DNA of 64,000 nt, from positions 37,324 through 101,323 of the forward strand of contig CANQCR010000003.1 in assembly GCA_947589735.1 (NCBI GenBank), given 5' to 3'. Below are positions 3,208 through 28,632 of the stretch, piece after piece. The stretch's first letter is position 1; each line of letters begins with the position of its first letter. The notes under the pieces are model-generated. The model searched no databases. It saw only the letters and a list, made by a program, of their open reading frames with translations, and was not told the origin of the DNA. Both the position numbers and the translations under genes were made by a program. This stretch comes from an uncultured Bacilli bacterium (GTDB lineage Bacteria; Bacillota_I; Bacilli_A; RF39; UBA660).

Positions 3208-3341
3208 TTTATCTTTTCCTTAATTTTATTATCAACTTGGACAATTCTACATTGCGTCATTTCTGGTTTTAACTCTTTTAAATATATTTTTGATTGCAAA
3301 TCTTTTTTATCAGTTTTTTTTAGTAACGATTTAATACCCAT
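3204..3341 (-). CDS. Unannotated 45-aa ORF (MGIKSLLKKTDKKDLQSKIYLKELKPEMTQCRIVQVDNKIKEKIK). Candidate precursor peptide or small partner of the rSAM enzymes.
   Basis: An AGGAG motif sits 9 nt upstream of the ATG. The start overlaps the end of the B12-rSAM gene by 11 nt. The stop TGA overlaps the ATG of the next rSAM gene (ATGA). Confidence 0.5.
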   Translation of the reverse strand: MGIKSLLKKTDKKDLQSKIYLKELKPEMTQCRIVQVDNKIKEKIK

Positions 3342-4971: not shown

Positions 4972-5954
4972 TATAGAACTATTTCCCCGATACGTTTAAT
5001 AACTTCTTGAGAAAAAATTTCATTATTTACCCAAATTTTAATGAATGGGACAACTTCATCAAATTTTTGGATACCGGCTAAATCGCTTAAACTATCATAT
5101 ATTTTATTCATTAATTTATTATCATCAAAGATTATAGAAATAAAGTTGGCACCAGATTTAATAATTTTTATACCTTTTATGTCTTTAAAAGCATTATATA
5201 TTAAGTCTCTATTAGCTTTAATATATTCTCTAGTATCAACAAATGCTTTTAGTATTTTTTTATCATTTAATAAAGATACAAAGAAATTTTCAGAATAAGA
5301 AGTAACTGAATGTGGTGGGATAATGGTATTTCTTAGGCCTTCTATTTTTTTAGTTGTTACCATATAGCCTGTCCTATAACCGGAAGCTAAAAACTTTTTT
5401 GAAAATGATCTAAATATTATAACCCTATCATTTTCTAAGCAAATATCTATCATTCCTCTTTCATCATCTGAATAATCAATATATGCTTCATCAATAATCA
5501 AAGTTCCTTTATATATATTCAATATTTCATTTATTTGCTTTTTTGTAAATAACTCACCGCTAAACCACCTTGGTGAAGATATACATAATAAATCCTTATT
5601 ACTTGACTTAACTCTTTTTAAATTATTAATAAAATCTTCCGTATGAATTCCTTGTACAAATATTATTTTTTTATCATTTAATAATGCTGTCCTTTTATAT
5701 AGAGCAAATTCTATATCTGGTAATATAATATTTTTCCAATCCTTTAATCCAACTATTGCATTAATAAATTGACTAATACCAGCACCAACATATATATAGT
5801 CTTTTTTTACATTTATGTAATTTGAAATTGCCTTAACAAGAGGATCTTCTAGAGGATATGCTAAATTATAGTTAAAATCCCCGTTGGCGTTTTCTTTAAA
5901 GTGTTTTATTTCCCATTTCCTTAATAATTTATTATTTTGCCATACTGATGACAT
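4971..5954 (-). CDS. Class I/II PLP-dependent aminotransferase/decarboxylase family (HisC/CobD-like)
   Basis: IDEAY and RSFSKKFLASGYRTGY motifs with the PLP lysine. The 327-aa length is typical of CobD-like members. Confidence 0.75.
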   Translation of the reverse strand: MSSVWQNNKLLRKWEIKHFKENANGDFNYNLAYPLEDPLVKAISNYINVKKDYIYVGAGISQFINAIVGLKDWKNIILPDIEFALYKRTALLNDKKIIFVQGIHTEDFINNLKRVKSSNKDLLCISSPRWFSGELFTKKQINEILNIYKGTLIIDEAYIDYSDDERGMIDICLENDRVIIFRSFSKKFLASGYRTGYMVTTKKIEGLRNTIIPPHSVTSYSENFFVSLLNDKKILKAFVDTREYIKANRDLIYNAFKDIKGIKIIKSGANFISIIFDDNKLMNKIYDSLSDLAGIQKFDEVVPFIKIWVNNEIFSQEVIKRIGEIVL

Positions 5955-6021
5955 ATACTATCTTTCCTTTCTTTAAACAATAGTACACATTGCTTATTTA
6001 AACTCTAGTATGTTCTATTCA

Positions 6022-6060
6022 TTTATAAACAAAAAAGAGGGCCATAAAACAAGGCCCTCC
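6022..6060 (-). terminator. Rho-independent terminator of the gene ending at 6139
   Basis: GAGGGCC-N9-GGCCCTC hairpin followed on the minus strand by TTTTTTGTTTAT. Confidence 0.7.
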
Positions 6061-6138
6061 TCCTCCACAAGTACTACAAATTAATTTATCACTTATTTTA
6101 TTACTTTTTTTAATGAAAATCAATTGTTTTTATATATT

Positions 6139-6528
6139 TTATTTTTTTATATAAACAGATATAACGTATAAATCCATACCATCAGCATTTTTATCATAGA
6201 TAACATTATCAATAATAGGAAGCATATGATAATAATTGTTTTTATCCCAGCAAAATACAATATATGAATCATTATTCAAATTCAAATCTTTAATCATAAC
6301 ATCTTTATCAAAATCAACATTAAAAATATTATTATCTTCCATATATTTTTCAAATACCGGTATATCATTAAATGAAGAACAATTTAATTCTTTTGCAACT
6401 TCACATAAGTCATTATAAACATCTTCATATTCTTTATTTAAAATCTTACACAAACTTCTTATTACGCAATTACTTTTACCGTTTTTATCTGATATACAAA
6501 ATTCTTTAAATATCATCTTAATCTCCAA
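6139..6528 (-). CDS. Hypothetical protein
   Basis: A 129-aa ORF within the run of minus-strand genes. Confidence 0.5.
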   Translation of the reverse strand: MEIKMIFKEFCISDKNGKSNCVIRSLCKILNKEYEDVYNDLCEVAKELNCSSFNDIPVFEKYMEDNNIFNVDFDKDVMIKDLNLNNDSYIVFCWDKNNYYHMLPIIDNVIYDKNADGMDLYVISVYIKK

Positions 6529-7006
6529 TCTTTTTTATTTTTGTATACATTCTTGAATGATATCCATTTTTATCATAAAACTTAATCGCATTTTCATTAT
6601 AAGCAAATACATCTACTAAAATATATTCACAACCTAGTGATTTGAAATATTCTTCCATCTTATTCATAAGCATATTACCTATACCCTTACTTCTTACATT
6701 TTTAGAAACTATTAATTCCGTTATTTCTCCTCTTTTCGGACATTTATAATCGAGATAATCATATTCATCATATGGAAAAATACATCCCATAATTAATCCT
6801 ACTGCTCTATCATTTTCAATTGCTATATAACATTTACCATTATTATTTTTAACTTTCTCTAAATCTAAAATTGCCATTTTATCTCTATATTCTGGATGTA
6901 GTTGATCTAAATTATCTTTATCAATAGATAAAATATACTCTTCAAGTTCAACTAACAAGTCTTTAACATCTTCCAAATATTTATCTTCGTATTCTATTAT
7001 TTTCAT
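6518..7006 (-). CDS. GNAT family N-acetyltransferase
   Basis: Acetyl-CoA-binding motif RSKGIGNMLM. Confidence 0.75.
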   Translation of the reverse strand: MKIIEYEDKYLEDVKDLLVELEEYILSIDKDNLDQLHPEYRDKMAILDLEKVKNNNGKCYIAIENDRAVGLIMGCIFPYDEYDYLDYKCPKRGEITELIVSKNVRSKGIGNMLMNKMEEYFKSLGCEYILVDVFAYNENAIKFYDKNGYHSRMYTKIKKIGD

Positions 7007-7604
7007 TATTAAAATAATACTCCTTAGTTAAACCATATTTAGAAAAAGTTAATATTCCATCATAAAAAGTATAAGGTGATTCTTTTACTACTTCACCAGT
7101 TTTTTCAAATCCTAGTTTTTCAAATATTCTACAAGATCCTATATTATCTTTTACAGCGCCAGAAGAAATACCATTTATTTCTACATCTTTAAACATATAA
7201 TCAATCATTGCTTTAGTAGCTTCGGTTGCATATCCTTTCCCTTGGTAAATAGGATATATATACCAACCCACATCACGAATGGTAATATCCTCTCCATTTT
7301 CCTGAGCAGATATCTGACCAATTACTTCTTCATAACCACTATTCGTATATTCCGGCTTCAAAAATACGCTCCATACAAATACATCATTATTATCTGCTTT
7401 TTCTACTTTAGATTTATAAAACTTTTCTTGATTTTCCCAAGTCCAGTGACTTGGATTATTTGCATATTTTTTCGCACTTGTTAGATACCATTTATTTACT
7501 TCTGGTATCATTAATATCTCCCACAATCTTTTTTGTTCTTCCATTTTAGAACTTCTTAATATTAATCTTTCCGTTTCTATTGTTTTACTTCCCATTAAAT
7601 TCAT
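6981..7604 (-). CDS. GNAT family N-acetyltransferase (RimJ/RimL-like)
   Basis: QGKGYATEA motif and RimL-like architecture. Confidence 0.75.
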   Translation of the reverse strand: MNLMGSKTIETERLILRSSKMEEQKRLWEILMIPEVNKWYLTSAKKYANNPSHWTWENQEKFYKSKVEKADNNDVFVWSVFLKPEYTNSGYEEVIGQISAQENGEDITIRDVGWYIYPIYQGKGYATEATKAMIDYMFKDVEINGISSGAVKDNIGSCRIFEKLGFEKTGEVVKESPYTFYDGILTFSKYGLTKEYYFNNENNRIRR

Positions 7605-7622
7605 AATATCAAACCCTTTTAT

Positions 7623-8378
7623 CTATACTCTATCATAACCCCACCAATCAGGAATTAATTCTTCTAGTCTTACTATTTCTTTCGTATTAATGTTTTTACA
7701 TATTTCAATATCTTTACTCTTTTTAGATAGTTGCATCAGATATTCTCTACATGCTCCACAAGGTAAACAAACATTTCCTTTTGAATCAATACAAACTAGT
7801 TTTATAATCTCATTTTCACCATTTGTAATCATATTAGCAATAGCATTCCGCTCACCACACATACCAAGTGTTGATGCCGTATCAATGCATACACCTGTGT
7901 AAATATTATGATTTTTAGTAAGTATTGCTGATCCAACTTGCCCTGCACTAATCATCCCTGATACTTCTCTTGGATTTCTAATATTCTTTGCCTTTTCATA
8001 TAATTCATCCCAAACAGTGTTTTCACTATATAAATATTCTATATGAATTGCATATACACCATTTTTCTCAATAGCTTCTTGATATCCATCTGGCGCACTT
8101 ACATTTCTAATTGCTTCTTCTTTATCTTTGGTAGAGGAAGTTGTATATCGTATGCCTTCTAAAGTGAATAATTCTTCTAAAGAATTATAATGATTTACTT
8201 CTTTAACTTTAACATAAAATACACCTAAATTATTACTAGTAAATTCTATAATATCATTTTCTTTTAATTTACTATAATCATACTCGCTATTTTCTTTTTT
8301 TACTCTTATTTCTACTCTCTTTGTATTATTCTTTATAGCTAAAGCTTCACAATCACTAATATTTAATTTCATTATCAT
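7623..8378 (-). CDS. ASCH-domain / cytidine-deoxycytidylate deaminase-like fusion protein
   Basis: An N-terminal ASCH-like region; C-terminal zinc motifs (MCGERNAI ... PCGACRE) typical of CDA and blasticidin-S deaminase folds. Confidence 0.65.
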   Translation of the reverse strand: MIMKLNISDCEALAIKNNTKRVEIRVKKENSEYDYSKLKENDIIEFTSNNLGVFYVKVKEVNHYNSLEELFTLEGIRYTTSSTKDKEEAIRNVSAPDGYQEAIEKNGVYAIHIEYLYSENTVWDELYEKAKNIRNPREVSGMISAGQVGSAILTKNHNIYTGVCIDTASTLGMCGERNAIANMITNGENEIIKLVCIDSKGNVCLPCGACREYLMQLSKKSKDIEICKNINTKEIVRLEELIPDWWGYDRV

Positions 8379-8446
8379 TTTAATATCCTCCTAACAAAAA
8401 AATTCTGCATAATGCAAAATTAATTTTATAAGTTAAAAGAATATTC

Positions 8447-8512
8447 CTAAAAGTTTAATAAATTAGGAGTAGTGATTAATTTTGCATTATTAACAACTTG
8501 TAAATTTTTCAT
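8447..8512 (-). CDS. 21-aa leader uORF (MKNLQVVNNAKLITTPNLLNF)
   Basis: Strong SD GAAAGGAGGG 9 nt upstream of the ATG. The ORF overlaps one arm of a 16-bp inverted repeat upstream of the deaminase gene. Confidence 0.4.
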   Translation of the reverse strand: MKNLQVVNNAKLITTPNLLNF

Positions 8513-8678
8513 CTTAATCACCCTCCTTTCTTTGAATAATTTACACTAATAATATATCATAATTTTATAATTTTTTAAATTACCTTTGCTTTTTCTTTAA
8601 CGATTAAAATAAAACTTGTTATATAAACGTTACTTTTCTAATATCATTTTGATATTTTAATTTTAAAAGTATCATTTA

Positions 8679-9947
8679 TTAGATAGTAAGGTGAATAGCG
8701 GTAACAGACACGCCCTGGCCAAAAGCCGTCGTAACTGTTTCTAGATCCCCAATCTTATCAACATCAAAAAGGATTCCGTTTTCTTCCCCATTTAGTTCAA
8801 TACCTGTTTTAACCCCAAAACCAAAATCTTTAATATATTTAAATAATTTTTCTTTACCTAATTTATAACCGATACTGACAAATCCCGTATTACATGAGTT
8901 TTCGACAACTTCTAAATAGGTTTGATGGCCATGGCCACCATGTTTCCAACAATGAATTGTCGCTCCACTTACTTTCACACTACCCGTATCATAATAGTAG
9001 TCTTTATCTAAATCAATTAAGTTTTCTTCTAAAGCCGAAGCTAACGATATAATCTTAAATGTTGATCCCGGTTCATAAGTCATCCAAATGGGAAGATTAC
9101 GATTAATCTCTTCGGTCGCATAATCTTGATAATGCAATGGGGAAAAAGTCGGACGAGATGCGATAGCTAATACTTCGCCGGTGTTAGGATCCATTATTAT
9201 GCCCCAAGCCCCATCGGGATTATACATATTAATAGCGTTATCTAATTCTCTTTCTAAAGCTTCTTGCAACTTATAGTTAATGGTTAGGGTAATATTCATT
9301 CCCGCCTGGGGTTGTTCATATTTTTGACTTAACTTTAATTTTTCACCCTTCGCATCACTATAATATTTAATCGCACCATAGCTTCCCGTTAAATAATCAT
9401 CATAGATGAGTTCTAAACCGCTTAAACCTTGATTATCTATTCCAACAAAACCAAGTGTATTAGCTAAAAGCGTATCATAAGGATAATCCCTCTTCGCTTC
9501 TTTAACAAGATAGACGCCATCTAATTTTAAAGCATTTATCTTATCCGCTACTAAATTACTAAGTCGTCTTCCCTCCGGGTGAACCCGTTCGATAGATGTC
9601 TTTTTACTTGTGTGCGCTAACATATCATCATATGGAACTTCTAAAATGTTAGCTAAAGCTGAAGCCGTCTTTTCCTTATCTTTAATTTGATTAGGAATCA
9701 ATACTAAGGATGTCGTCGTTACATTACCTGCTAAAGTAACCCCTTCCCGGTCATAGATATTTCCTCGGTTAGCTTCTAAAGGTAGATTACGACTCCATAA
9801 GTCATTCGCATATTTATTTAATTTATCATAACTAAATACTTGGATATAAAAAACTTTGCCAATGATTATTATAAACATCATTATAATTATGACTAAAACA
9901 AAGCGCATTCTTTCGTTCATTTTTTTAATAAACATATCATCACCCAT
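8679..9947 (-). pseudogene. C-terminally truncated class B penicillin-binding protein (FtsI/PBP2B-like)
   Basis: N-terminal TM segment, dimerisation domain, and the STFK and SCN motifs are present. The ORF stops before the KTG motif. Only about 300 bp of non-coding sequence follows. Confidence 0.6.
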
Positions 9948-17406: not shown

Positions 17407-18045
17407 TTAATTGTCAAATTTTGGTTGATTATCACTTTCCCCTTTATTTTCAAGGATTAAATCTAAAACAGCCTGATATAATTTTTCATTTGCTTTATCA
17501 AGTTGCATATTATCAACTTTAAAGGGCTTACCATAACGAATAGTAAGATTCTTACTTCGAAACTTATAATCACCGGTTATCCCAAAAGGAACGAGATAAG
17601 CGTTAGTCTTTTTAGCCATCGCCACCGCTCCATATTTAAAAGGTAATAGTATTTCATCCGTTTTATTTCTTGTTCCTTCCGGGAATAAACCGATAGCACC
17701 GTTATCTTTTAAGACGGATATGGCAAGCGCTTGCGCTACTTTATCGCCATGAGCCCGGTCGACACTAATACAACCGGTACCTTTAAAAAACCACGCTACC
17801 TTAGCATCATCAAAGTATTCTTTTTTAGCCATATAGTGAATACCACGCTTGGTAGCAACAATCGTAAGACACTGATCATACAAGTGTTTATGATTACCAA
17901 CGATAATAATAGGTCCATCTTTAGGAATATTTTCCTTACCAATTATTTTAGGACGATAATAAAGTTTAAAGATAGGTCCTAAAATAAAGCGACCAAAGCG
18001 ATATAAGAATGGAACTTTACTCGTCATCGCTAGCTCCGATATCAC
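17407..18045 (-). CDS. plsC: 1-acyl-sn-glycerol-3-phosphate acyltransferase
   Basis: NHKHLYD (HX4D) and FPEGTRN motifs. Confidence 0.75.
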   Translation of the reverse strand: MISELAMTSKVPFLYRFGRFILGPIFKLYYRPKIIGKENIPKDGPIIIVGNHKHLYDQCLTIVATKRGIHYMAKKEYFDDAKVAWFFKGTGCISVDRAHGDKVAQALAISVLKDNGAIGLFPEGTRNKTDEILLPFKYGAVAMAKKTNAYLVPFGITGDYKFRSKNLTIRYGKPFKVDNMQLDKANEKLYQAVLDLILENKGESDNQPKFDN

Positions 18046-19750
18046 TTTTTAACTTTTGAAAATCAACTTTACCAAGTTTTGTTTTCGGTAATTGTTTACG
18101 GAAGACAAACTCAGCCGGAATCATATACTTAGCTAGATTTTTCTGGCAATAACTTTTGATTTCTGAACGGACAAATAAGCCATGATAACCATCTTTTAAA
18201 ACGATAAAGGCTTTGGCAACCTCTTGCTTATAAGGATGGGGAATACCGATAACACTACACTGTAAAACAGCGGGATGAGATTCAATAACCTCTTCAATAT
18301 GGTTAGGATATACGTTATACCCACTCGTAATAATCATCCGTTTTTCTCTTCCCTTATAAAAGATAAAACCATCACTATCCATATAACCTAAATCACCGGT
18401 ATGAAGCCAAACATGGCCATCTTTATGAATTCTTAAAGCTGCATTTGTTTCTGCTTCATCATTTAAGTAGCCCATCATCAAGGCTTTACTATTAATAACA
18501 ATCTCCCCTACTTCACCATAAGGAACTGTCTTTAAAGTAGCAGGATTAATAATTTTAATATTGTTACTAGCAAGAGGAATCCCTACCGATCCTTTTTTAT
18601 TGATATCATCACAGGCAAGGGTTACCGCGGCTAAGGCTTCTGATAAGCCATAACCTTGCGTAATGCGAGCTTTAGAATTATGTTCTTCAAAGTATTTATT
18701 GATACTATCTTCCAAGCCTTCCGTGAGGATATCCCCACCACTAACAACATATTTTAAGAAAGATAAATCCAAATGTTTTTCGTTATTACATTTAATTAAA
18801 GCTTCATATAAAGTAGGAACCCCTAATACACAAGTTGGTCTTGTCTTTTTAAATAACGTATCAAACTTTTTCGAATCAAATTGGGGAATTAAGATTGAAT
18901 AACAACCTAAAGCAAATGGTGTATGCATTAAAACACTTAAACCAAAACCATGGAAATTAGGCATAATAGCCAGACAGCAATCTCCCGCTTGTAAGCGTTT
19001 CATTTGAATTTGTTCTTGACGGGCCGCTAAAATGAAAGCTCGGTTTTGAATAACGACATTTTTAGGTTTGCCACTTGTCCCACCACTATGCAAAATAACA
19101 GCTGGAGTATTTTTCCCGTAGCGTACCCTTTTAGGTGGTTTGGTATTACGTCCTAATTTCATAAAATGTTTAAAACTAATAAATAAATCATCTTTAGGAT
19201 ATTTTTTATACTTACCTAATTGTTTTACTTTATAACCTATTTTCATAAAAATATTTAAGGAGTCAGCGGGCGATGCGAAAATAACTTTCTTTACCCTAGT
19301 CTCTTTGATGGTATGTTCAATTTTGTTATAAAACATATCGGCCATTACTAAATATTTACTATGGGTAGAGTTCAAGCTTTCTTTAATTTCTTCTTCAGCT
19401 GATAATGGGTGAAGCATATTACCGATTGCTCCTAATTTATTTAAAGCGTATAAAGCAATTAAGGCTTCTGGAATATTAGGTAAACATATCGTTACAATAT
19501 CCCCTTTTTTAATACCTAATGTGTAAAAAGATAGGCTAGCCTTATCAATTAATTTGATAAACTCTTTATAAGTCGTCTTTTTACCAAAGTATTCAATAGC
19601 TGGATACGAAGGATATTTTAAATAGCTATTATGAACATCATCATACATACTGATATTAGGTATTTTAAGATGTAGCTCTTCTTCCGTATAATACTTAGCC
19701 CAAGGAGCTGGAATGGGCTTCTTCGTTCTTAAAAGATTAAAGATTGACAT
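18017..19750 (-). CDS. AMP-dependent long-chain fatty acid--CoA/ACP ligase
   Basis: AMP-binding motif TSGTSGKPK and GYGLSE. Confidence 0.8.
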   Translation of the reverse strand: MSIFNLLRTKKPIPAPWAKYYTEEELHLKIPNISMYDDVHNSYLKYPSYPAIEYFGKKTTYKEFIKLIDKASLSFYTLGIKKGDIVTICLPNIPEALIALYALNKLGAIGNMLHPLSAEEEIKESLNSTHSKYLVMADMFYNKIEHTIKETRVKKVIFASPADSLNIFMKIGYKVKQLGKYKKYPKDDLFISFKHFMKLGRNTKPPKRVRYGKNTPAVILHSGGTSGKPKNVVIQNRAFILAARQEQIQMKRLQAGDCCLAIMPNFHGFGLSVLMHTPFALGCYSILIPQFDSKKFDTLFKKTRPTCVLGVPTLYEALIKCNNEKHLDLSFLKYVVSGGDILTEGLEDSINKYFEEHNSKARITQGYGLSEALAAVTLACDDINKKGSVGIPLASNNIKIINPATLKTVPYGEVGEIVINSKALMMGYLNDEAETNAALRIHKDGHVWLHTGDLGYMDSDGFIFYKGREKRMIITSGYNVYPNHIEEVIESHPAVLQCSVIGIPHPYKQEVAKAFIVLKDGYHGLFVRSEIKSYCQKNLAKYMIPAEFVFRKQLPKTKLGKVDFQKLKSDIGASDDE

Positions 19751-20339
19751 TATATCCCTCCAATTTATTTTTTATAATGTTACGTAAGCGTTCATTTTCT
19801 TTTTCTAGATAATCATTAACGTAAATAGGGTCTAGAAACTCTATTTGAAGTCCTTTTTTAAAAAGACGATACTCTCCTGTTATGACAAAAGGAACAATCG
19901 GAGCCTTAGTTTCATAGGCCATCTTGACCGCGCCGATTTTAAATGGCATAACAATGTCGTTGGTCCGGTTAAAAGTCCCTTCAGGGAAAATACCAATTAC
20001 TTTTTCTGATGAAAGATAAGCAATCGCCTTATTTAAAGCTTCTGGATTTTTCACACTACGATCAACGGGTATTAAGCCTAGATGTTTAAAGATAAGGCCT
20101 TTGAGTCCTTTAAAAAGTTCTACTTTAGCTAAAAAATGAATCGGTCTTTTTGTCGATGATAATAAGATTAAAGAATCAAAATTATGCTTATGATTGCCCG
20201 CTAAAATAACCCGGCCATTTTTAGGAATTTTATCTATTCCAATAAGTTTAGGTCGATACAATAATTTAAAAAGGAATTTAACAATCGGTCTAACTATTAT
20301 ATATAGTTTTGCATTTTTCATATTCATCACTATTATCAT
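19737..20339 (-). CDS. 1-acylglycerol-3-phosphate acyltransferase family (second PlsC-like paralog)
   Basis: AGNHKHNFD and FPEGTFNR motifs. Confidence 0.7.
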   Translation of the reverse strand: MIIVMNMKNAKLYIIVRPIVKFLFKLLYRPKLIGIDKIPKNGRVILAGNHKHNFDSLILLSSTKRPIHFLAKVELFKGLKGLIFKHLGLIPVDRSVKNPEALNKAIAYLSSEKVIGIFPEGTFNRTNDIVMPFKIGAVKMAYETKAPIVPFVITGEYRLFKKGLQIEFLDPIYVNDYLEKENERLRNIIKNKLEGYNVNL

Positions 20340-20392
20340 ACCATTTTTTTATTTCTTTGACAAAAAGATAGCTATTTAATTATATGTGATAA

Positions 20393-20426
20393 CTTTAAAA
20401 AAAGAAAAAAGCGATTAATATCGCTT
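20393..20426 (-). terminator. Rho-independent terminator
   Basis: AAGCGAT-taat-ATCGCTT hairpin followed by TTTTCTTTTTTT. Confidence 0.65.
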
Positions 20427-21276
20427 ATTTTATCTTTTTAACCTTATCGGTAGTAGGTTCATTATCATCAGTATTAATTTCAACTTCATGAAGTAATATA
20501 TCTCTTAACTCTCTATAGGTATCTAAATCTCCACTAGATTCAAGATCTTTAGCTTTATCTAAGGAACTAGATAATTCTTTTTCTTTAACTTTTTCTTTAT
20601 CCTTATCTTTATCCTCATCATCTTCTTCTAAAGATGCTTTAAAATGTTGTTCTAAAGAAGAATCTTCCTTTTGATGATGTCCTTCTTCATACTTTAACAA
20701 ATAACCTGTAATCGTTAACATCTGCATTGATGTTGTCATAATAAATAAAGTATTAAATAATGTATCGACATCTAAAAACTTTGATAAAAAGCCAACACCT
20801 AATAAAGGATATAGGGCACAAGTTTTAATTTTACCAATATATAGGGAGCTCACACTACTTCTTGTTTGATTATTTATTTTAGCACGGACATTAATCCCCG
20901 CAATAATAGCTTCTAAAATAAGATTATAAATTAAAGTTGGGTTAAAAAAGCTTGAGGCAATTAGTAAAGATCCCGCAAATACTTTATCACATATCGCATC
21001 AAGATCTTTACCTAGTTCACTAGTTAGATGATAGTGTCTAGCAATAAAGCCATCTAAGGCATCCGTTAAAGAGAAGATAGTTGTAAAGATAACAATTAAG
21101 GGAATATTAGCTGTAAGCGCCGCGGGAATGATAAATAGCGGTGCTGCAATAAGTCTTGTTGACGTCAAAATATTAGGTATTTGGCGATATCTTCGACCTT
21201 TAGTTTTTAAATCTGTTATAGCATCTTTAATAAGTGCTTTATAACGTTTCCAATTTTCTTTAATTCCCTGTTTCAT
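20425..21276 (-). CDS. CDP-alcohol phosphatidyltransferase (PgsA-like) with an acidic Lys/Asp/Glu-rich C-terminal tail
   Basis: TDALDGFIARH...GKDLDAICD motif. Confidence 0.75.
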   Translation of the reverse strand: MKQGIKENWKRYKALIKDAITDLKTKGRRYRQIPNILTSTRLIAAPLFIIPAALTANIPLIVIFTTIFSLTDALDGFIARHYHLTSELGKDLDAICDKVFAGSLLIASSFFNPTLIYNLILEAIIAGINVRAKINNQTRSSVSSLYIGKIKTCALYPLLGVGFLSKFLDVDTLFNTLFIMTTSMQMLTITGYLLKYEEGHHQKEDSSLEQHFKASLEEDDEDKDKDKEKVKEKELSSSLDKAKDLESSGDLDTYRELRDILLHEVEINTDDNEPTTDKVKKIK

Positions 21277-21332
21277 ACAACATTCCCCTTTAATTGATAA
21301 CTTATTTTATACCTCCCCTATCTTTTTGTCAA

Positions 21333-22712
21333 CTAATAGTCACAATTGTTTGGTGTCCGGTAATATGGAATAACATCACGGATATTTTCAACACCTGTTA
21401 AATAAATTAACAAACGTTCAAAGCCCATACCAAAGCCAGAGTGAACACACCCACCATAACGGCGTAAGTTCAAGTACCAATCAAGCTCATCAGTATTCAT
21501 ACCTAACTCATGCATTCTGCTAACAAGTTTATCATAGTCTTCCTCACGTTGTGAGCCACCCATCAATTCCCCAGCACCTGGTACCTCAAGATCAACGGCC
21601 GCAACTGTCTTGCCATCAGCATTTTGTTTCATATAGAAAGCTTTAATATCTTTAGGCCAGTTTTTGATGAAAACAGGGCCATTAAAGTATTCGGTAATAT
21701 ATTTTTCGTGTTCCTTGGCAATATCCTCACCATATTCAGGGGGAAACTCCCACTTAACATCGGCTTCTTTTAAAATCTTAATAACTTCTTCGTGATCGAT
21801 ACGGGTAAACTTACTACTAATTAACTTGGTTAATTTTTCTTTTAATCCTTTTTCGACAAAGGCATCAAAGAAGTCAATTTCTAAAGGACAATTGTCTAAG
21901 ACATACTTAACAACATATTTAAGCATATCTTCCATAATATCCATATCTTGATCTAAATCACAGAAAGCAATTTCTGGTTCAATCATCCAAAACTCATTAG
22001 CGTGCGTTTTCGTATTAGAGTTTTCCGCTCTAAAGGTTGGACCAAAAGTATACGTTTTCTTATAAGCTAGAGCCCAAGTTTCAGCTTCTAATTGACCTGA
22101 TACCGTAAGAGATGTTTGTTTACCAAAAAAGTCTTTACTATAGTCAACCTCACCACTTTTCGCAATCCGGTCTAAATCAAGAGTCGTTACTTGAAACATC
22201 TCACCAGCTCCCTCACAATCACTAGCTGTAATTAAAGGAGCATGAAAATAAACATATCCACGTTCTTGAAAGTATTTATGAATCGCATAAGCGGCGACGC
22301 TACGAACTCTAAAAGTTGCATTAAACAAGTTCGTCCGAGGACGAAGATAAGCATTATCTCTTAAGAACTCTCTTGTATGTCTTTTAGGTTGAATTGGATA
22401 GTCTTCATCACAATCACCTTCTAGAGTAAGTTCTTTGCATTGCATTTCTAACTCTTGTCCTTCTTTAGGTGATGGAATTAATATGCCAGTTACACTAATC
22501 GCACTACCAATATGTAACTTGGTAATCTCATCGAAATTAGCTAATTTGTTATCATAGACAATTTGTAAATGGGTAAATGTTGTCCCATCACTAAAATCGA
22601 TAAAACCAAATTCTTTTTGCTTACGATGATTACGAATCCAGCCTTGAACAGTTACTTCTTTATTTAAATAAGCTTTCGTATCAGCATATATTTCTTTTAA
22701 ATCTAAAATCAT
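21333..22712 (-). CDS. asnS: Asparagine--tRNA ligase
   Basis: Close match to E. coli AsnRS (EGAGEMFQV, FGPTFRAENSNT, GGSQREE, HSGFGMGFERL). Confidence 0.9.
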   Translation of the reverse strand: MILDLKEIYADTKAYLNKEVTVQGWIRNHRKQKEFGFIDFSDGTTFTHLQIVYDNKLANFDEITKLHIGSAISVTGILIPSPKEGQELEMQCKELTLEGDCDEDYPIQPKRHTREFLRDNAYLRPRTNLFNATFRVRSVAAYAIHKYFQERGYVYFHAPLITASDCEGAGEMFQVTTLDLDRIAKSGEVDYSKDFFGKQTSLTVSGQLEAETWALAYKKTYTFGPTFRAENSNTKTHANEFWMIEPEIAFCDLDQDMDIMEDMLKYVVKYVLDNCPLEIDFFDAFVEKGLKEKLTKLISSKFTRIDHEEVIKILKEADVKWEFPPEYGEDIAKEHEKYITEYFNGPVFIKNWPKDIKAFYMKQNADGKTVAAVDLEVPGAGELMGGSQREEDYDKLVSRMHELGMNTDELDWYLNLRRYGGCVHSGFGMGFERLLIYLTGVENIRDVIPYYRTPNNCDY

Positions 22713-22714
22713 AG

Positions 22715-24172
22715 TTACCTCCTATCAATTTCTTCTTTGATAATTTGGGCCGTTAATGATGGATTAGCTTGACCTCTTGTCTCTTTCATTACTTGACCGA
22801 CGAAGAAATCAAAAGTATTACGACCTTTACGATGTTCAATAATTAAATCAGGATGAGCATCTAAAACTCTAACGACAATATCCCGAATAGTTTTATCATC
22901 AGATATTTGACTAACACCTAATTCTTTGACAATGACTTTTGGTTCTTTCTTTTCTTCTAAGACTTTATTTAAAACTTCTTTACTCTGTTTAGAAGATATT
23001 TTACCATCTTTCGTCATCTGCATTAAATCAACTAACATTTTGGGTGTTAAATAAAGATCTTTAATTTCTAATTCATTTTTATTTAAATAACCTAATATGA
23101 CACTTGTAAGCCAGTTAGCCGCTCCTTTAGGATCAGCTCCTAAACTGATAACCTCTTCATAATAATCCGAAATAGCTTTATCTTTAACTAGTATTTTAGC
23201 GTCATAAGCTGATAGGTTATATGTTTTCATATATTTTTCTTTACGTTCAGGCGCTAAAGCAGGAATACTCTTACGAATATTATCGAGCCAACTTGAGCTT
23301 ATTTTAAACTTTGGAATATTAGGTTCAACAAAATATTTATAGTCGATAGCATCTACTTTACTTCGCATAAACTTCGTTGTAAAAGTATCTTCATCCCATC
23401 TTCTGGTTTGTTGTTCCATCTTATCATATTCACCCTTTTGTTTTAACTCTACTTGTCTTTCAATTTCATAGTTAATAGCGTCTCTAACGCCGGCAAAAGA
23501 GTTAACATTTTTAATTTCTACTTTAGTTCCCCAATTTTTAGGATCTGTTTCATCTAGGTTTTCATCCATAATCGAAACGTTAACGTCACATCTAATTTGT
23601 CCCTTGCGGTTATCCGCATCACTTATTTCAGCATACTGATAAATAGAGCGCATCGTCTCAAGAAAAGCAACGGCTTCATCAGCGCTATGTAAATCCGGTT
23701 CCGTTACTAATTCTAGAAGAGGAACACCAGCCCGGTTATAATCAATGGTTGAAAAAGTAGGATAGTGATCAGATGAAGCAGCATCTTCTTCTAGATGGAT
23801 ATTGTTAATGCGAACAGTTCTCTCTTCATCTTTATAATCAAAAGTAAGGGAGCCATAGATACCGACAGGAGCAGGTTTAGTCTCTTGTGTAATCTGATAA
23901 CCCTTAGGTAAATCAGGATAATAATAATTCTTTCTTTCAAAGTACATATACTCTGGTTGTTTACAATTTAAAATCATACTTGCTTTTAAAGCTAGCTCAA
24001 CCGCTTTTTTATTGACAACTGGTAAGGTTCCTGGAAAAGCCATATCAAGAGGTCTAATATTGGCATTAGGAGTATCATTATAATCGTTTAGAGCACTACT
24101 AAAAACTTTCGTCTTTGTCTTACTTATTTCACAGTGCATCTCAAGTCCGATTAAAGCTTTATATCCGTCCAT
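22715..24172 (-). CDS. gatB: Asp/Glu-tRNA amidotransferase subunit B
   Basis: GatB N- and C-terminal signatures; gatC-gatA-gatB gene order. Confidence 0.9.
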   Translation of the reverse strand: MDGYKALIGLEMHCEISKTKTKVFSSALNDYNDTPNANIRPLDMAFPGTLPVVNKKAVELALKASMILNCKQPEYMYFERKNYYYPDLPKGYQITQETKPAPVGIYGSLTFDYKDEERTVRINNIHLEEDAASSDHYPTFSTIDYNRAGVPLLELVTEPDLHSADEAVAFLETMRSIYQYAEISDADNRKGQIRCDVNVSIMDENLDETDPKNWGTKVEIKNVNSFAGVRDAINYEIERQVELKQKGEYDKMEQQTRRWDEDTFTTKFMRSKVDAIDYKYFVEPNIPKFKISSSWLDNIRKSIPALAPERKEKYMKTYNLSAYDAKILVKDKAISDYYEEVISLGADPKGAANWLTSVILGYLNKNELEIKDLYLTPKMLVDLMQMTKDGKISSKQSKEVLNKVLEEKKEPKVIVKELGVSQISDDKTIRDIVVRVLDAHPDLIIEHRKGRNTFDFFVGQVMKETRGQANPSLTAQIIKEEIDRR

Positions 24173-25626
24173 TATTTTACCTCCTTTGCAATTTGATCTT
24201 TATAATTCATTTGTCCTTCCAAAGCATAGGCAATATTTAAGACACATGCGTCATCATAACAATTACCTGTTATATTAACACCGACAGGTAGATTATTTAT
24301 AAAGCCATTAGGAATGGTAATTGAAGGGAATCCTCCAAAGTTACCAATCTGTAAATGTTCTTCTAAAATATGACTATTTTTATAATCTTTATTTTTAGCA
24401 TCATCTAAATATTTAGCTGGTCCACTACCAACGGGTAAGATAACAGCATCATATTTTTTAAATAATTCTTTCCACGTATCAACAAGTAATCTTCTAACTC
24501 TTTGGGCATTATTAAAGTAACGGTCTTTGTTTTCAGCTTGTAAAACGTATGAACCGATAATAAAACGCCTTTTAATTAATGATGAAAATCCTTCGGTCCG
24601 ATAGTTCTTCATCATTTCAACATAAGTATCCCCTTTGCTTCGAGGTCCAAAGATAATACCGGTTAAATTAGACATATTAGAAGTTGCTTCAGCACAAGAG
24701 ATAACAACATAAACAGAGTTTAGGGCATCTAATAATTTCATATCAACCGATACTTCATCAACACTCATACCGATCTTTTTACATAATTCTAATGTCTTAT
24801 TAAAATTAGCTAAATGTTCTTTTAATTCATCTGAAGCATCAGGATAATTATTTATATCACATATCTCTTTAACATAACAAAGTTTTTTACCTTTAACATC
24901 ATCACTTAAAGATTCATATAAATGTATATCACTAGAATCCCAACTAGTCATATCATTTTTATCAATGCCTTTCATCGCATCTGTTACAATAGCGGCATCT
25001 CTAACACTACGGGTAAGACATCCTAAGTGATCAAGACTTGAGGCAAATGGGAATAAGCCATACCGAGAAATCATTCCGTAAGTTGGCTTAAAACCGACAA
25101 TCCCACAGTAAGCAGCCGGTTTACGAATAGAGTCCCCTGTATCAGAACCCGTCGCAAAAGGATAAACACCAGCGGCGACAGATGCGGCACTTCCAGATGA
25201 ACTTCCGGCACACATTCTTTCTTTATCCCAAGGATTTTTAATAAATCCCGTATGCGCTGTTTTACCAAGGCCACCCATACCAAACTCATCCATCGTTGTC
25301 TTACCGATTAAAACAGCCCCACTACTTTTTAATTTCGTAACAGCCGTGGCATCAAAAAATGGTACATAATCTTTTAAGGTATTACTAGATCCCGTACTTA
25401 AAATATCTTTCGTACTATAGTTATCTTTTAAGCCATATGGAATACCTGATAATAAATTATCAGATACACTCGCCCCTTTAGCGTCATCAATAATTGTTAC
25501 AAAGGCATTACATTCTTTAGCGCAATCATGCGCTTTAGCTAAAGATTCTTTAACTAACTCTTCACTAGTTACCTCACCCTTCTTCAAGGCTTCGTGAAGT
25601 TCTACAATTCCTTTATCCATGTACAT
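24172..25626 (-). CDS. gatA: Glutamyl-tRNA(Gln) amidotransferase subunit A
   Basis: Amidase signature GGSSGGSAA. Confidence 0.9.
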   Translation of the reverse strand: MYMDKGIVELHEALKKGEVTSEELVKESLAKAHDCAKECNAFVTIIDDAKGASVSDNLLSGIPYGLKDNYSTKDILSTGSSNTLKDYVPFFDATAVTKLKSSGAVLIGKTTMDEFGMGGLGKTAHTGFIKNPWDKERMCAGSSSGSAASVAAGVYPFATGSDTGDSIRKPAAYCGIVGFKPTYGMISRYGLFPFASSLDHLGCLTRSVRDAAIVTDAMKGIDKNDMTSWDSSDIHLYESLSDDVKGKKLCYVKEICDINNYPDASDELKEHLANFNKTLELCKKIGMSVDEVSVDMKLLDALNSVYVVISCAEATSNMSNLTGIIFGPRSKGDTYVEMMKNYRTEGFSSLIKRRFIIGSYVLQAENKDRYFNNAQRVRRLLVDTWKELFKKYDAVILPVGSGPAKYLDDAKNKDYKNSHILEEHLQIGNFGGFPSITIPNGFINNLPVGVNITGNCYDDACVLNIAYALEGQMNYKDQIAKEVK

Positions 25627-25925
25627 TATCCCACCACCTTTGGAACTTTTATTTCGGTATCGACGTAGTTATCACAATTTTGAAGTAATTCATCAATGGG
25701 AACACTTTCTTCTTCGACATCTTCTCTTAGTTCATAAACAAAATCATCTAAGCAATGCGTCATCGGTTCAACCTCACCTAACCCATCAATCGCATTCAAA
25801 CGATCAATATCCGCATCAATCTTATCAAACTCATCTAAAACCATCTTGTTTTCTTCTGGTGTTAGACCAATCAATAACTTATCAGCTAAATCATCAACAA
25901 CTTCTTTGGTAAATACTTTTGTCAT
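25626..25925 (-). CDS. gatC: Amidotransferase subunit C
   Basis: 99 aa. The true ATG at 25925 is preceded by AAAGGAGG. The ORF-track start at 25952 is a TTG over-extension. Confidence 0.8.
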   Translation of the reverse strand: MTKVFTKEVVDDLADKLLIGLTPEENKMVLDEFDKIDADIDRLNAIDGLGEVEPMTHCLDDFVYELREDVEEESVPIDELLQNCDNYVDTEIKVPKVVG

Positions 25926-25940
25926 AATATCCTCCTTTAT

Positions 25941-25967
25941 ATGAAAAAACAAGTCCTAGGACTTGTT
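25941..25967 (-). terminator. Intrinsic terminator/attenuator between tRNA-Asn and gatC
   Basis: AACAAGTCC-TA-GGACTTGTT hairpin followed by a T6 run, immediately upstream of the gatC SD. Confidence 0.55.
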
Positions 25968-25977
25968 ATTTACTAAG

Positions 25978-26053
25978 TGGCGCCTGATGTAGGACTCGGA
26001 CCTACGACCTGCCGGTTAACAGCCGGATGCTCTACCGACTGAGCTAATCAGGC
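25978..26053 (-). tRNA. tRNA-Asn (GTT)
   Basis: Hand-folded cloverleaf; anticodon loop CTGTTAA; encoded CCA. Confidence 0.85.
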
Positions 26054-26056
26054 GCA

Positions 26057-26132
26057 TGGCGCTCAATGTAGGACTCGGACCTACGACCTGCCGGTTAACA
26101 GCCGGATGCTCTACCAACTGAGCTAATTGAGC
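26057..26132 (-). tRNA. tRNA-Asn (GTT), second tandem copy with a different acceptor stem
   Basis: Same body as the first copy; acceptor GCTCAAT/ATTGAGC; encoded CCA. Confidence 0.85.
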
Positions 26133-26385
26133 AATTAATAAATTATAGTCCCGATTGGGACGAAATATTCCGCGGTGCCACCCAATTTATCAATATTATT
26201 GATCACTTTATCGATTCTATTAAATCGTGTAATATGATAACGGATTACTTCCGATTAAGCCTACTTCGTTCAGCCTAACAACTAGTGGATGTTATTCATA
26301 ATAAACTTAATCGTTAGCTCACACCATACCTAACTCGCTTTTATCAGTTTTTATTATTACTTCTTCCACGTCAAAACGCTTATGT
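26133..26385 (-). promoter_or_regulatory. T-box riboswitch-like leader, probably Asn-specific
   Basis: Conserved T-box sequence AAATTGGGTGGCACCGCGG at 26170-26188, followed by a GTCCC-AATC-GGGAC hairpin and an A/T-rich tract. Stem I is closed by GATTAAG/CTTAATC and contains candidate AAC specifier codons. Confidence 0.6.
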
Positions 26386-26389
26386 ACTA

Positions 26390-26418
26390 ATTATATTTCA
26401 AAGATAAGTTTTTGTCAA
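26390..26418 (-). promoter_or_regulatory. Consensus sigma-A promoter (TTGACA-17-TATAAT) driving the T-box leader
   Basis: Exact -35 and -10 hexamers with 17-nt spacing. Confidence 0.6.
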
Positions 26419-26466
26419 TACACTTTTAGTGTTTAGGTAAGACATTTTTAAATAAAAAAGAAGACG

Positions 26467-28632
26467 TTAATCTTCTTTCTTGGGCATTAATTGATATTGC
26501 TTTCCTCCTTCAGATAAAGTATCTTCATATTCTATAAGATATGGAAGTAAAGCCTTCATATAACCATTTAACTCATCTGATATATGAGGAAAAGGATGAC
26601 TTAAATAATAATCATAAGCCTCTTTGAATTTCCTTTTCTTAAGAAAATGGCGCATCGTCTTTAAATCATCTACGCCTGAAACCTCGATATGCGTAATTTC
26701 TTCAGGTTCTGAGTGATGATGAACATTTTGGGTTTTTAATTGCCATAATAATTTTTTATAAGCTCTTGGATATGGCTTTTTAAAATTATTTTTGGCTTCC
26801 ATCATCCACTCATCACTTTGACAAAGCACAAAAGCCGTCTGATAATCACCATAATATAAAGCGTGAAGAAAGCGTTCGATAAGACTCGCATTTTCTAATT
26901 CATAAGGATTAAAATAAGTTGGCGTAGCGCCATAATTAGATTTCGTCTTTAAAATTAATCTAATAATTCGAAGAAGATTAACGTCATCCGCATCATCATA
27001 ATTTTGGCCATATACTTCTTTAGTTAAACGATCTTTTTCTTGAATTAAAGATGCCACTTCTTCTAACTCTTCTGGTGTAAAAAAGCCTTGCTGATAAAAC
27101 ATATCTTTAATTTTTTGTCTTAACACTTTAAGGCTATCTAGCCGTGGTTTGATATGCTCGTATTCGGTAATCGCTTTAACTAAATCATCTAAAATAAGAG
27201 CATAGATATGAAACTCTTCCGCCTTTTGATGAATAAGAAGATCATATTTCTCACACGCTAAAGCTAATTCATAAGCTTTTTTAAAATCAAGATTTTCAAG
27301 AGCGGTATAGAAGTTTGAAAAAATAGTCCCAGCATTATATTGCATATCAGGGTCAATAACACTAAAATTAGCATTATACTTTTGAACATCCAATAGACGA
27401 ACGATAAGTTTTCTTGCATTATTAAAGACTCTCGTTTGCTTCCTACTAGCATCTTTATACTTATAACATAATTCTAAAGCCTTTTCATAGTCTTTATCAT
27501 AAACAAGTTGTTCTAATGTTTTAATGTCAGAGTCTATATCATCAGCTTTTTTAGATATTACATTATTAGTAACTTCTACTTTAGGTGTTACATCAACAAT
27601 AGGAGCTTTAACCTGGCTTTTTGTTTTTGCATCAAGCCGGACTAGCGTTCCTATTAAAGACGTTACAGCATTAAAATAGTGCCAATCATTTCTTGGAATT
27701 TCAACTAAATCTTTAACTTCAAAGGCCGTAAGATAATCGCCATTTGCTAAGGCCGTATCAAAAAGCTTTTTAGGTTCTAATGGTGGATATGATGCTTTTT
27801 TTAAAGATAGTAATCCTTTTTTAATGGCTTCAGCATCATCAAGTAATTTATACATTACTTGCCACTTAGCTTGATATTTAGGAAAGACATAAACAATTAG
27901 TTTATCCATATTTCTTTTAATAGCGGCGCGGTCATTAAGCGAAATAGAAGCCATTAAGCGCTCATATATCCTACCAAAATTACGTTTACGCCAAACATCA
28001 GCTTGTAAATACTTTTTTTCTTCTTCAAAAGTTAATTGATCTCTTTTATCAGCATACTCTTGATAATAGAAAAGCATTTTCTTATCATAAACCTGTAACG
28101 ATAAATTATGAATATTATGGGTTGTACCCCGAATATGGCCAAATAAAGATAATTCTTCGGTTTTAACATCATGATAATCTCTTATAGCATCTTCAATTGC
28201 ACCCACGATAATCTTTCTTTTATAATTCGTAAATATTGGTAAATAATCACTACTATCCTGATATGATAATTGGTGAAGGAGTTCATCACATTCTATATCC
28301 ATATTAGATAGTGTTTTTACTAAACTAATAATACAAGCCATGGTAAGATCTTCGTTGGTATCTTCCCTTAAAGCAATGGCATCTTTAAAACAAGCAATAG
28401 CTTCAACATACCTTTTACTACTAGCGATTCGAACACCTTTTTCTAGAGTTCGCATCGCTTGATAACCATTTTTAGAAAATTGATAGTGACCCCTTTTAAC
28501 TCTTACAAGAACACCCGTTTCAACTAATTTATGAACTTGGTATTTACTTAAACCACCTTCATATAACACTTTCGTCTCGTAATCTATTTGCGGTAGACGT
28601 TTTAAAGTATTTAAAGATTCTTTTATATCCAT
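26467..28632 (-). CDS. Hypothetical 721-aa protein with an N-terminal wHTH (AbiEi-like RGxY motif) and a helical-repeat body
   Basis: N-terminus GVLVRVKRGHYQF; the rest is predicted all-helical and TPR-like. Confidence 0.55.
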   Translation of the reverse strand: MDIKESLNTLKRLPQIDYETKVLYEGGLSKYQVHKLVETGVLVRVKRGHYQFSKNGYQAMRTLEKGVRIASSKRYVEAIACFKDAIALREDTNEDLTMACIISLVKTLSNMDIECDELLHQLSYQDSSDYLPIFTNYKRKIIVGAIEDAIRDYHDVKTEELSLFGHIRGTTHNIHNLSLQVYDKKMLFYYQEYADKRDQLTFEEEKKYLQADVWRKRNFGRIYERLMASISLNDRAAIKRNMDKLIVYVFPKYQAKWQVMYKLLDDAEAIKKGLLSLKKASYPPLEPKKLFDTALANGDYLTAFEVKDLVEIPRNDWHYFNAVTSLIGTLVRLDAKTKSQVKAPIVDVTPKVEVTNNVISKKADDIDSDIKTLEQLVYDKDYEKALELCYKYKDASRKQTRVFNNARKLIVRLLDVQKYNANFSVIDPDMQYNAGTIFSNFYTALENLDFKKAYELALACEKYDLLIHQKAEEFHIYALILDDLVKAITEYEHIKPRLDSLKVLRQKIKDMFYQQGFFTPEELEEVASLIQEKDRLTKEVYGQNYDDADDVNLLRIIRLILKTKSNYGATPTYFNPYELENASLIERFLHALYYGDYQTAFVLCQSDEWMMEAKNNFKKPYPRAYKKLLWQLKTQNVHHHSEPEEITHIEVSGVDDLKTMRHFLKKRKFKEAYDYYLSHPFPHISDELNGYMKALLPYLIEYEDTLSEGGKQYQLMPKKED

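Follow-up and report, generated by a model that had tools for sequence, protein, structure and literature searches.

The window analysed here, 64,000 nucleotides (nt) of DNA from an uncultured Bacilli bacterium (contig CANQCR010000003.1), carries on its minus strand a T-box leader, two genes of asparagine tRNA (tRNA-Asn) and the genes gatC, gatA, gatB and asnS, of which the first three encode the amidotransferase GatCAB and the last one asparaginyl-tRNA synthetase (AsnRS). The initial annotation of this DNA had described a consensus TTGACA-17-TATAAT promoter, a T-box leader, two tandem tRNA-Asn(GUU) genes, a hairpin with T6 behind them and gatC-gatA-gatB-asnS, with no space for a separate promoter in front of either the tRNAs or gatC, and these elements were all recovered in that order (Table 1). 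The promoter, located on the minus strand at 26418-26390, agrees with the consensus in 12 of 12 positions and ranks best among the promoter-like sites in a 7-kb scan around the locus; both its hexamers are unchanged in 7 related loci aligned with that of the window, and the T-box match begins 7 nt past the -10 hexamer.

Table 1. Features of the T-box, tRNA-Asn and gatCAB-asnS locus in the window; the last row refers to Ruminococcus loci discussed in the text, with each position preceded by the name of its locus
Feature	Position	Strand	Evidence and remarks
-35 hexamer TTGACA of the operon promoter	26413..26418	-	17-nt spacer to -10, 12/12 consensus match
-10 hexamer TATAAT of the operon promoter	26390..26395	-	predicted start ~26383, the first base of the T-box match
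T-box leader (Stem I, Stem II/IIA-B, Stem III, antiterminator)	26153..26383	-	Rfam RF00230
Specifier codon AAC (Asn) and following A, Stem I specifier loop	26291..26293	-	Rfam alignment, sequence reading
Conserved T-box sequence GGGUGGCACCGCGG	26170..26183	-	Rfam alignment, sequence reading
Competitor ("terminator") hairpin GUCCC-AAUC-GGGAC (26161-26148) with tail UAUAAUUUAU	26138..26161	-	terminator-like, 5 pairs
tRNA-Asn(GUU) copy 1	26057..26132	-	ARAGORN; Rfam tRNA 69.0 bits; acceptor stem GCUCAAU, G1-C72, G73, CCA encoded
tRNA-Asn(GUU) copy 2	25978..26053	-	ARAGORN; Rfam tRNA 68.4 bits; acceptor stem GCCUGAU, G1-C72, G73, CCA encoded
Terminator-like hairpin AACAAGUC-CUAG-GACUUGUU with U6 run, between tRNA array and gatC	25944..25967	-	terminator scan
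Shine-Dalgarno GGAGG of gatC	25931..25935	-	sequence reading; 5 nt upstream of ATG at 25925
gatC (99 aa)	25626..25925	-	TIGR00135 46.3 bits, just below cut-off 47.1; PF02686 in homologs
gatA (484 aa), start overlaps gatC stop	24172..25626	-	TIGR00132 444.4 bits, E=4.6e-133, below cut-off 481.1
gatB (485 aa)	22715..24172	-	NF004012 563.8 bits, above cut-off
asnS, asparagine--tRNA ligase (459 aa)	21333..22712	-	NF003037 624.2 bits vs cut-off 414
Ruminococcus alaS loci	L058 7010-7339; L090 7718-7373 (-); L110 763-1107; L015; L067		

A covariance-model search aligned the leader with the entire RF00230 model (1-219 of 219) at 121.8 bits (E=1.8e-26), that is, 29 bits above the gathering score of 93 bits. 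The specifier loop, AUGAAU-AAC-A (26297-26290), presents the asparagine codon AAC (26293-26291), which is then followed by the usual purine, whereas the T-box core, written as AAAUUGGGUGGCACCGCGG, contains the bulge UGGC (26180-26177) that is complementary to the G73-CCA end of both downstream tRNA-Asn genes. Because the specifier AAC and the bulge UGGC both fit tRNA-Asn(GUU) with its G73-CCA end, the leader is cognate to the tRNAs behind it and, to judge from its sequence, is a real, Asn-specific T-box. The same signature holds among the relatives described below: AAC occupies the same position in all 83 complete related leaders, and the last base of the bulge UGGN is either C (40 loci) or U (46 loci), while the discriminator of the first tRNA is G in 85 of 86 loci (a single call, without CCA, reads C), so that the two bases form either a Watson-Crick or a wobble pair.

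The two tRNA-Asn genes, found by both ARAGORN and Rfam, are separated by 3 nt. The initial annotation had placed the leader less than 15 nt upstream of the first of them; this figure is approached by the last hairpin of the leader, which ends 15 nt before the tRNA, whereas the T-box core ends 37 nt before it (minus strand). As isodecoders, the two are not alike, the acceptor stem (GCUCAAU vs GCCUGAU) being the main point of difference. The hairpin behind them (8 bp, 25967-25948) starts 10 nt past copy 2, and the T6 run (25949-25944) shares two bases with its stem. The identities of gatC, gatA, gatB and asnS follow from comparison with NCBIfam, where the TIGR families are the best matches of gatC and gatA despite scores below the cut-off; the junctions between the four genes are overlapping or 2 nt long.

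When considering the possibility that this gene order is meaningful, its persistence among relatives is the obvious test. Tracing GatC homologs (73-100% identity) to their contigs yielded nine distinct loci with a T-box (113-122 bits), one or two tRNA-Asn genes, a hairpin with a U run and gatCAB, with either asnS or an aspS encoding a GAD domain behind gatB; in the alignment of the relatives, neither the AAC specifier nor the T-box core varies. A pattern scan for the T-box core followed, after 36-66 nt, by a tRNA D-arm, performed on one genome per species (GTDB representatives), returned at least 120 loci. Among the 120 matches listed, 82 have complete tRNA-Asn(GTT) genes behind the motif, and six more combine a T-box that reaches the gathering score with a tRNA that is cut by the end of the locus or scores poorly, which gives a total of 88 listed loci where a T-box leads into one to four tRNA-Asn genes. 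Since two pairs of loci share a metagenome-assembled genome (MAG), at least 86 genomes are involved. Their records are those of uncultured "Bacilli", "Tenericutes", "Mollicutes" or "Erysipelotrichaceae" MAGs from rabbit, human, rumen and chicken guts; the few records with other taxon labels are probably binning errors. The gathering score of RF00230 is reached in 18 of 18 diverse sampled loci (121-144 bits) and in 8 further loci, the scores across all relatives tested being 113-144 bits. In tblastn comparisons, nearly every listed locus with enough downstream DNA runs on into gatC-gatA-gatB, with GatA proteins that are 53% to 92% identical to that of the window, and further into asnS, aspS, or asnS-aspS; in three listed loci, the tRNAs are directly followed by asnS, with no gatCAB between. 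The conservation of this order down to ~53% GatA identity argues for a functional unit. The other matches of the scan included 12 loci from Sphingobacterium and Alloprevotella, where the motif falls within tandem tRNA-Phe genes, and actinobacterial, Chloroflexi and Chromatiaceae matches next to Lys, Thr or Gly tRNAs, which have no Rfam T-box; both sets were discarded as false positives.

Over a set of 86 loci (82 listed scan loci, the window and three GatC-derived loci), the array consists of one tRNA-Asn gene in 16 cases, two in 52, three in 10 and four in 8. Acceptor-stem mismatches, one or two each, are present in 6 of 12 single-copy "arrays" (L004 2868-2943; L045; L074; L117; L086); those with mismatches look like the 5' half of copy 1 joined to the 3' half of copy 2 and are, therefore, probably products of short-read assembly in which the tandem repeat collapsed, and no real genes. 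In one locus (L130, 4428-4503), an extra tRNA-Asn gene lies upstream of the T-box, where it replaces most of a tRNA-Ile gene of which a fragment is left; by its position, it would be constitutive and precede the gated copies, and it was seen only here among the extracted loci.

Two architectures can be distinguished. In 28 loci, the T-box is embedded in a tRNA operon, ~20 nt behind tRNA-Ile(GAU) and tRNA-Glu(UUC), and the order is promoter, tRNA-Ile, tRNA-Glu, T-box, two to four tRNA-Asn genes, gatCAB and then aspS or asnS (L034, 2960-3800; L025; L028; L042; L084; L121; and 22 others), the promoter reading TTGTCA...TATACT in L034. The terminator stem of these leaders is followed by a T-run of at least 5 in 27 of 28 loci and has median values of 13 pairs and -15.8 kcal/mol, as measured by a method based on minimum free energy (MFE). 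From within the operon, the embedded T-box would thus gate its conditional tRNA genes, while those in front of it are constitutive. In the other class, comprising 58 loci including the window (hereinafter, own-promoter loci), no tRNA-Glu is seen upstream, and a loose promoter-like match precedes the leader in 41 of the 54 testable loci. Throughout this class, the antiterminator has a competing hairpin; the 3' arm of this hairpin shifts register (GGGAC, GGACGAA/G, GGGAUG, GACGRAUU) and is still complementary to the fixed 5' arm UUCGUCCC. The gap between the hairpin and the tRNA has a median of 10-14 nt. Three or four copies per array were counted only where the terminator is strong (15 of 24 vs 0 of 52; Mann-Whitney p=5e-7, uncorrected for phylogeny), which fits either a dosage that compensates for attenuation or a larger induced output.

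The second hairpin, that between the array and the protein-coding genes, is conserved as well. In 55 of 77 related loci, the last tRNA is separated from the ribosome-binding site (RBS) of gatC or asnS by a hairpin with a T-run of at least 4. Its sequence is kept in the own-promoter group (ACAAGUCC...GGACUUGU, then U5-U8), with 9 consensus pairs and compensatory changes in 5 of them, and many of the loci embedded in tRNA operons have, instead, UCUUUUUUUU right behind the CCA. Only ~10-15 nt separate this terminator from the GGAGG of gatC, which leaves no room for a separate gatC promoter; apparently without a promoter of its own and behind a conserved second terminator, gatCAB-asnS would rely on read-through for expression. 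Once the tRNAs are excised, the same hairpin would find itself at the 5' end of the mRNA, where it may have a stabilising role.

Taken together, these observations lead us to suggest, with a probability of roughly 0.6, that an Asn-specific T-box attenuation leader heads the locus and that the genes for its own ligand come first among those it regulates. In this scenario, RNA polymerase would start at the consensus promoter and transcribe the T-box, whereupon an uncharged tRNA-Asn would pair with it at two sites, the GUU anticodon with the AAC specifier and the free G73-CCA end with the UGGC bulge, and the tRNA so bound would stabilise the antiterminator and favour read-through. The read-through would first give a precursor with two tRNA-Asn, to be matured, presumably, by RNase P and 3' trimming, and those polymerases that also pass the hairpin-U6 terminator would transcribe gatC-gatA-gatB-asnS, so that a fall in the charged fraction of tRNA-Asn would raise tRNA-Asn, the amidotransferase and AsnRS together, with the second terminator setting a high ratio of tRNA to mRNA. 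Since Stem I binds uncharged and charged tRNA alike, what a T-box senses is the ratio of the two; hence, making the tRNA along with its charging enzymes need not run away, and capacity would rise instead. We infer co-transcription, tRNA-dependent read-through and processing from the arrangement of genes and RNA elements, according to which tRNA-Asn appears to help control the transcription of its own genes.

Several observations weigh against this scenario, and those that concern the leader itself bring up two alternatives. In the window, the competitor hairpin, which overlaps helix A1 of the antiterminator such that the two folds are mutually exclusive, has only 5 bp, a U-poor tail (UAUAAUUUAU) and an energy equal to that of the antiterminator (-8.5 vs -8.4 kcal/mol); relatives have either the 7-bp stem UUCGUCC/GGACGAG with U5 or stems of 12-14 bp with U5-U7, and the closest one, L039 (GatC 90%), shares the identical weak GUCCC/GGGAC hairpin. 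Among the 58 own-promoter loci, a T-run of at least 4 follows the hairpin in only 13, the next 8 nt contain at most three T in 22, and some hairpins are followed by A-runs (L017, L045, L081), which makes classical intrinsic termination in this class doubtful. Switching by the T-box of the window is, accordingly, probably weak, and high basal expression with modest regulation is to be expected from a decayed terminator. The decay might even be complete, with a T-box that no longer switches in this lineage, transcription running constitutively through the decayed hairpin into the tRNAs, and the T-box sequence surviving by recent ancestry or in a secondary role, for example, as a processed 5' leader. 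We consider this unlikely, given that leaders down to ~53% GatA identity retain the AAC specifier, a discriminator-matched UGGN and an Rfam score of 113-144 bits, and that the 3' arm of the competitor (GGGAC, GGACGAA, GGGAUG) remains complementary despite its shifts, which implies selection on the alternative fold. At the U-less hairpins, the choice between the antiterminator and the hairpin might, alternatively, govern something besides intrinsic termination, be it factor-assisted (NusA/NusG/Rho) termination or pausing, or the processing and stability of the precursor, and thereby the yield of tRNA-Asn and gatCAB mRNA. A competitor hairpin without a U-tract is, indeed, kept in most own-promoter loci, and the other terminators, such as the one behind the array, are canonical, so that the U-less form is no genome-wide habit. 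However, no specific mechanism of this kind is supported, and weak terminators can work with the help of host factors, which amounts to attenuation again; such an output seems rather improbable. One candidate mechanism was suggested by the MFE fold, in which the T-box 5' strand, once freed, pairs with the 5' side of the acceptor stem of tRNA copy 1. It was rejected, as 36 distinct leader/tRNA combinations gave duplex energies that did not surpass those obtained with 33 unrelated tRNA 5' ends (the fraction of control ends pairing at least as well was 0.09-0.73).

It could also be argued that the adjacency is coincidental, with the tRNAs transcribed from a promoter of their own and happening to lie between the T-box and its gatCAB-asnS, or beside a T-box without any target. 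A lone perfect TATAAT (26147-26142) does occur in the 15 nt that separate the T-box hairpin from tRNA copy 1, 9 nt upstream of this copy; weak promoter-like matches (9/12) occur within the leader, and the terminator behind the tRNAs could mark the end of an independent unit. Yet the TATAAT has neither a -35 hexamer nor a TG extension and is missing from the aligned relatives; the matches within the leader (26223-26195 and 26193-26164), which we rejected as conserved promoters, overlap Stem III and the T-box core and are not kept in relatives; and promoter-like matches in the region are in no excess over shuffled sequences (34 vs 28.2 ± 4.9). Between the leader and the tRNAs there is no conserved promoter in the relatives, and the layout is maintained in 88 listed loci with gaps of 10-14 nt, including those embedded in tRNA operons and those with asnS directly behind the tRNAs, while gatC, with ~10-15 nt before its RBS, apparently has no promoter of its own. 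A chance neighbourhood is, therefore, very improbable. Further observations count against the main scenario. The conserved terminator behind the array could make the outputs of tRNA and gatCAB-asnS largely separate. One relative (L135, GatC 74%) has the order hisS-asnS-aspS-gatCAB (1546-9219), with no Rfam T-box or tRNA within 12.3 kb, which means that the gated-tRNA arrangement was lost, or never gained, in part of the clade. Finally, U1-A72 is typical for bacterial tRNA-Asn, and the tRNA-Gln of L069 (6074-6148) carries this pair, whereas all 175 complete tRNA-Asn genes of the arrays have G1-C72. According to two reports, the bacterial GatCABs tested to date need U1-A72 and are blocked by G1-C72 (PMC1635274; PMC4206432). 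The array tRNAs, hence, lack the pair by which bacterial GatCAB would recognise them as substrates of the indirect pathway, and the tRNAs cannot simply be linked to gatCAB: either GatCAB of this lineage has another way of recognising tRNA-Asn, or it is there for Gln-tRNA-Gln alone and owes its place in this operon to some other reason.

The combination of a T-box with a cognate tRNA is not limited to asparagine. The phenylalanine analogue has the order promoter, T-box with a UUC specifier, canonical terminator, tRNA-Phe(GAA), putative pheS-pheT. Among five such loci (L044, L054, L075, L089 and L134), the gathering score is met by L075 only (3471-3808; 105 bits), where the tRNA-Phe is followed by a different, putative open reading frame (ORF) with no assignment to pheS or pheT; L089 (3507-3805) stays below it, at 63.5 bits (E=1.4e-13). 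In L089, L044, L054 and L134, the UUC specifier and the canonical terminator are present, and the ORFs of 345 and 807 aa are taken for pheS and pheT by size alone. More loci of the Phe type (L136, L139, L141, L148 and others) came from a scan of metagenomes for T-box/tRNA layouts, which returned at least 120 loci. Several Phe T-box-like leaders (L207 2151-2226, L234, L254, L249) precede a tRNA-Phe with an altered anticodon loop, which in three loci reads GAAAAAA, without U33 (anticodon called AAA by ARAGORN); three of the altered genes also have an imperfect acceptor stem, and they may be decaying genes or decoys. In a further metagenome locus (L218, 9397-9045, minus strand), a T-box of 96.8 bits leads directly into tRNA-Gly(GCC); the same locus contains a "drum" RNA (RF02958, 97.6 bits) at 9638-9751, ~240 nt away. 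In Ruminococcus MAGs, a T-box (93-95 bits) and a terminator are followed by a tRNA-like element of 90-130 nt and then by alaS. The acceptor, D and T arms of this element are normal, its end is A73-CCA, and G3·U70 is found in L058 and L110, but a long insertion takes the place of the anticodon arm, so that it may be a mimic of tRNA-Ala; L067 has two such elements in tandem. Trp, Arg, Tyr and several Phe metagenome candidates fell below the gathering score and were not counted, and the high-GC Ser, Cys, Val and similar matches were dismissed, as they have no terminator and those sampled (L142, L146, L158) no Rfam T-box.

The placement of a cognate tRNA, or its mimic, between a T-box and a synthetase gene is, as far as gene order can tell, a recurrent design. 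A still broader proposal, which we put forward only tentatively, is that the T-box-gated arrays are the main or only tRNA-Asn genes of their hosts, gut Bacilli with small genomes, which would make them autoregulated by the charging ratio, and that "T-box, cognate tRNA, cognate synthetase" is a general design realised for Asn, Phe, Gly and the Ala mimic, with the internal gates and the U-less, non-termination forms as its variants.

Regulation with a tRNA as the ligand is classically exemplified by T-boxes, whose known targets all code for proteins, namely synthetases, enzymes of biosynthesis and transporters. Individual control is not generally ascribed to bacterial tRNA genes, which are regarded as responding to growth rate at the level of the promoter. 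The initial annotation knew of no precedent for tRNA genes within a T-box unit, and the full-text literature searched, with subscription papers outside its scope, agrees in that it contains no published report of T-box-controlled tRNA genes. If our interpretation is correct, tRNA supply would be under a gene-specific control that depends on charging, and a feedback loop would be closed between the charging state of a tRNA and its own abundance. The series that ranges from strong terminators within tRNA operons, with three or four tRNA copies, to weak or U-less ones behind promoters of their own, with one or two, and further to Phe, Gly and the Ala mimic, makes this idea testable by comparison. 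It also follows that T-box catalogues which note only the first downstream coding sequence overlook intervening tRNA genes; in TBDB, the assignment of the specifier takes the ontology of the downstream gene into account (PMC7778990). In addition, the presence of G1-C72 tRNA-Asn genes beside gatCAB raises the question of how GatCAB of this lineage recognises its tRNAs.

The leader of the window shares with canonical transcriptional T-boxes, such as those of Bacillus subtilis tyrS and glyQS, the promoter-proximal location, the Stem I specifier followed by a purine, the UGGN bulge, the mutually exclusive antiterminator and hairpin, and an aminoacyl-tRNA synthetase gene (here asnS) in the unit. 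It differs from them in that the cognate tRNA genes, and not a protein gene, come first behind the leader and in that the terminator is degenerate in the window; in 28 relatives, moreover, the leader is internal to a tRNA operon. The closest precedent is found in Clostridium acetobutylicum, where, as Saad et al. are said to have described in 2012, an Asn-responsive T-box governs gatCAB and an Asx-tRNA synthetase gene. The Asn T-box over gatCAB and a synthetase gene is common to both systems; to our knowledge, the clostridial unit contains no tRNA genes, and in the uncultured gut Bacilli considered here the synthetase behind gatCAB is AsnRS (window) or, in many relatives, aspartyl-tRNA synthetase (AspRS) with a GAD domain. 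In mixed tRNA-protein operons such as thrU-tyrU-glyT-thrT-tufB of Escherichia coli, tRNAs share one promoter with a translation-related protein gene and are excised from the transcript. Such operons, however, are not known to contain a riboswitch or to be regulated by their own tRNAs as ligands. The Asn-transamidosome of Thermus thermophilus, reportedly characterised by Blaise et al. in 2010, is a ribonucleoprotein of non-discriminating AspRS (ND-AspRS), GatCAB and tRNA-Asn, and the same three kinds of component are encoded in one operon in many relatives of the window locus, which would suit stoichiometric assembly. In contrast to that complex, the window encodes AsnRS instead of AspRS, and the tRNA-Asn of the arrays has G1-C72 instead of U1-A72. 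Competitor hairpins without a U-tract are also a feature of the translational T-boxes of Actinobacteria, which sequester the Shine-Dalgarno sequence (PMC7778990); here, what comes next is a tRNA, with no Shine-Dalgarno sequence to sequester. An earlier survey of T-boxes found none upstream of amidotransferase genes (Wels et al. 2008; PMC2494555).

At its borders, the unit shows two further features. Upstream, a hairpin AGAAGA-UUAACG-UCUUCU with U5 (26454-26476), identified by eye and containing only 2 G-C pairs, for which reason the terminator scan passed over it, overlies the stop codon of a gene for a 721-aa protein and would insulate the T-box promoter from upstream transcription; this protein has no NCBIfam match, and one homolog of it has weak TPR matches. 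Downstream, the asnS stop codon adjoins a TTGACA-17-TAAAAT promoter (11/12; 21304-21335) of a pgsA-like gene with no terminator between, so that transcripts of the T-box operon may extend into the lipid genes (pgsA-like, plsC-like and fadD-like; 18017-21276).

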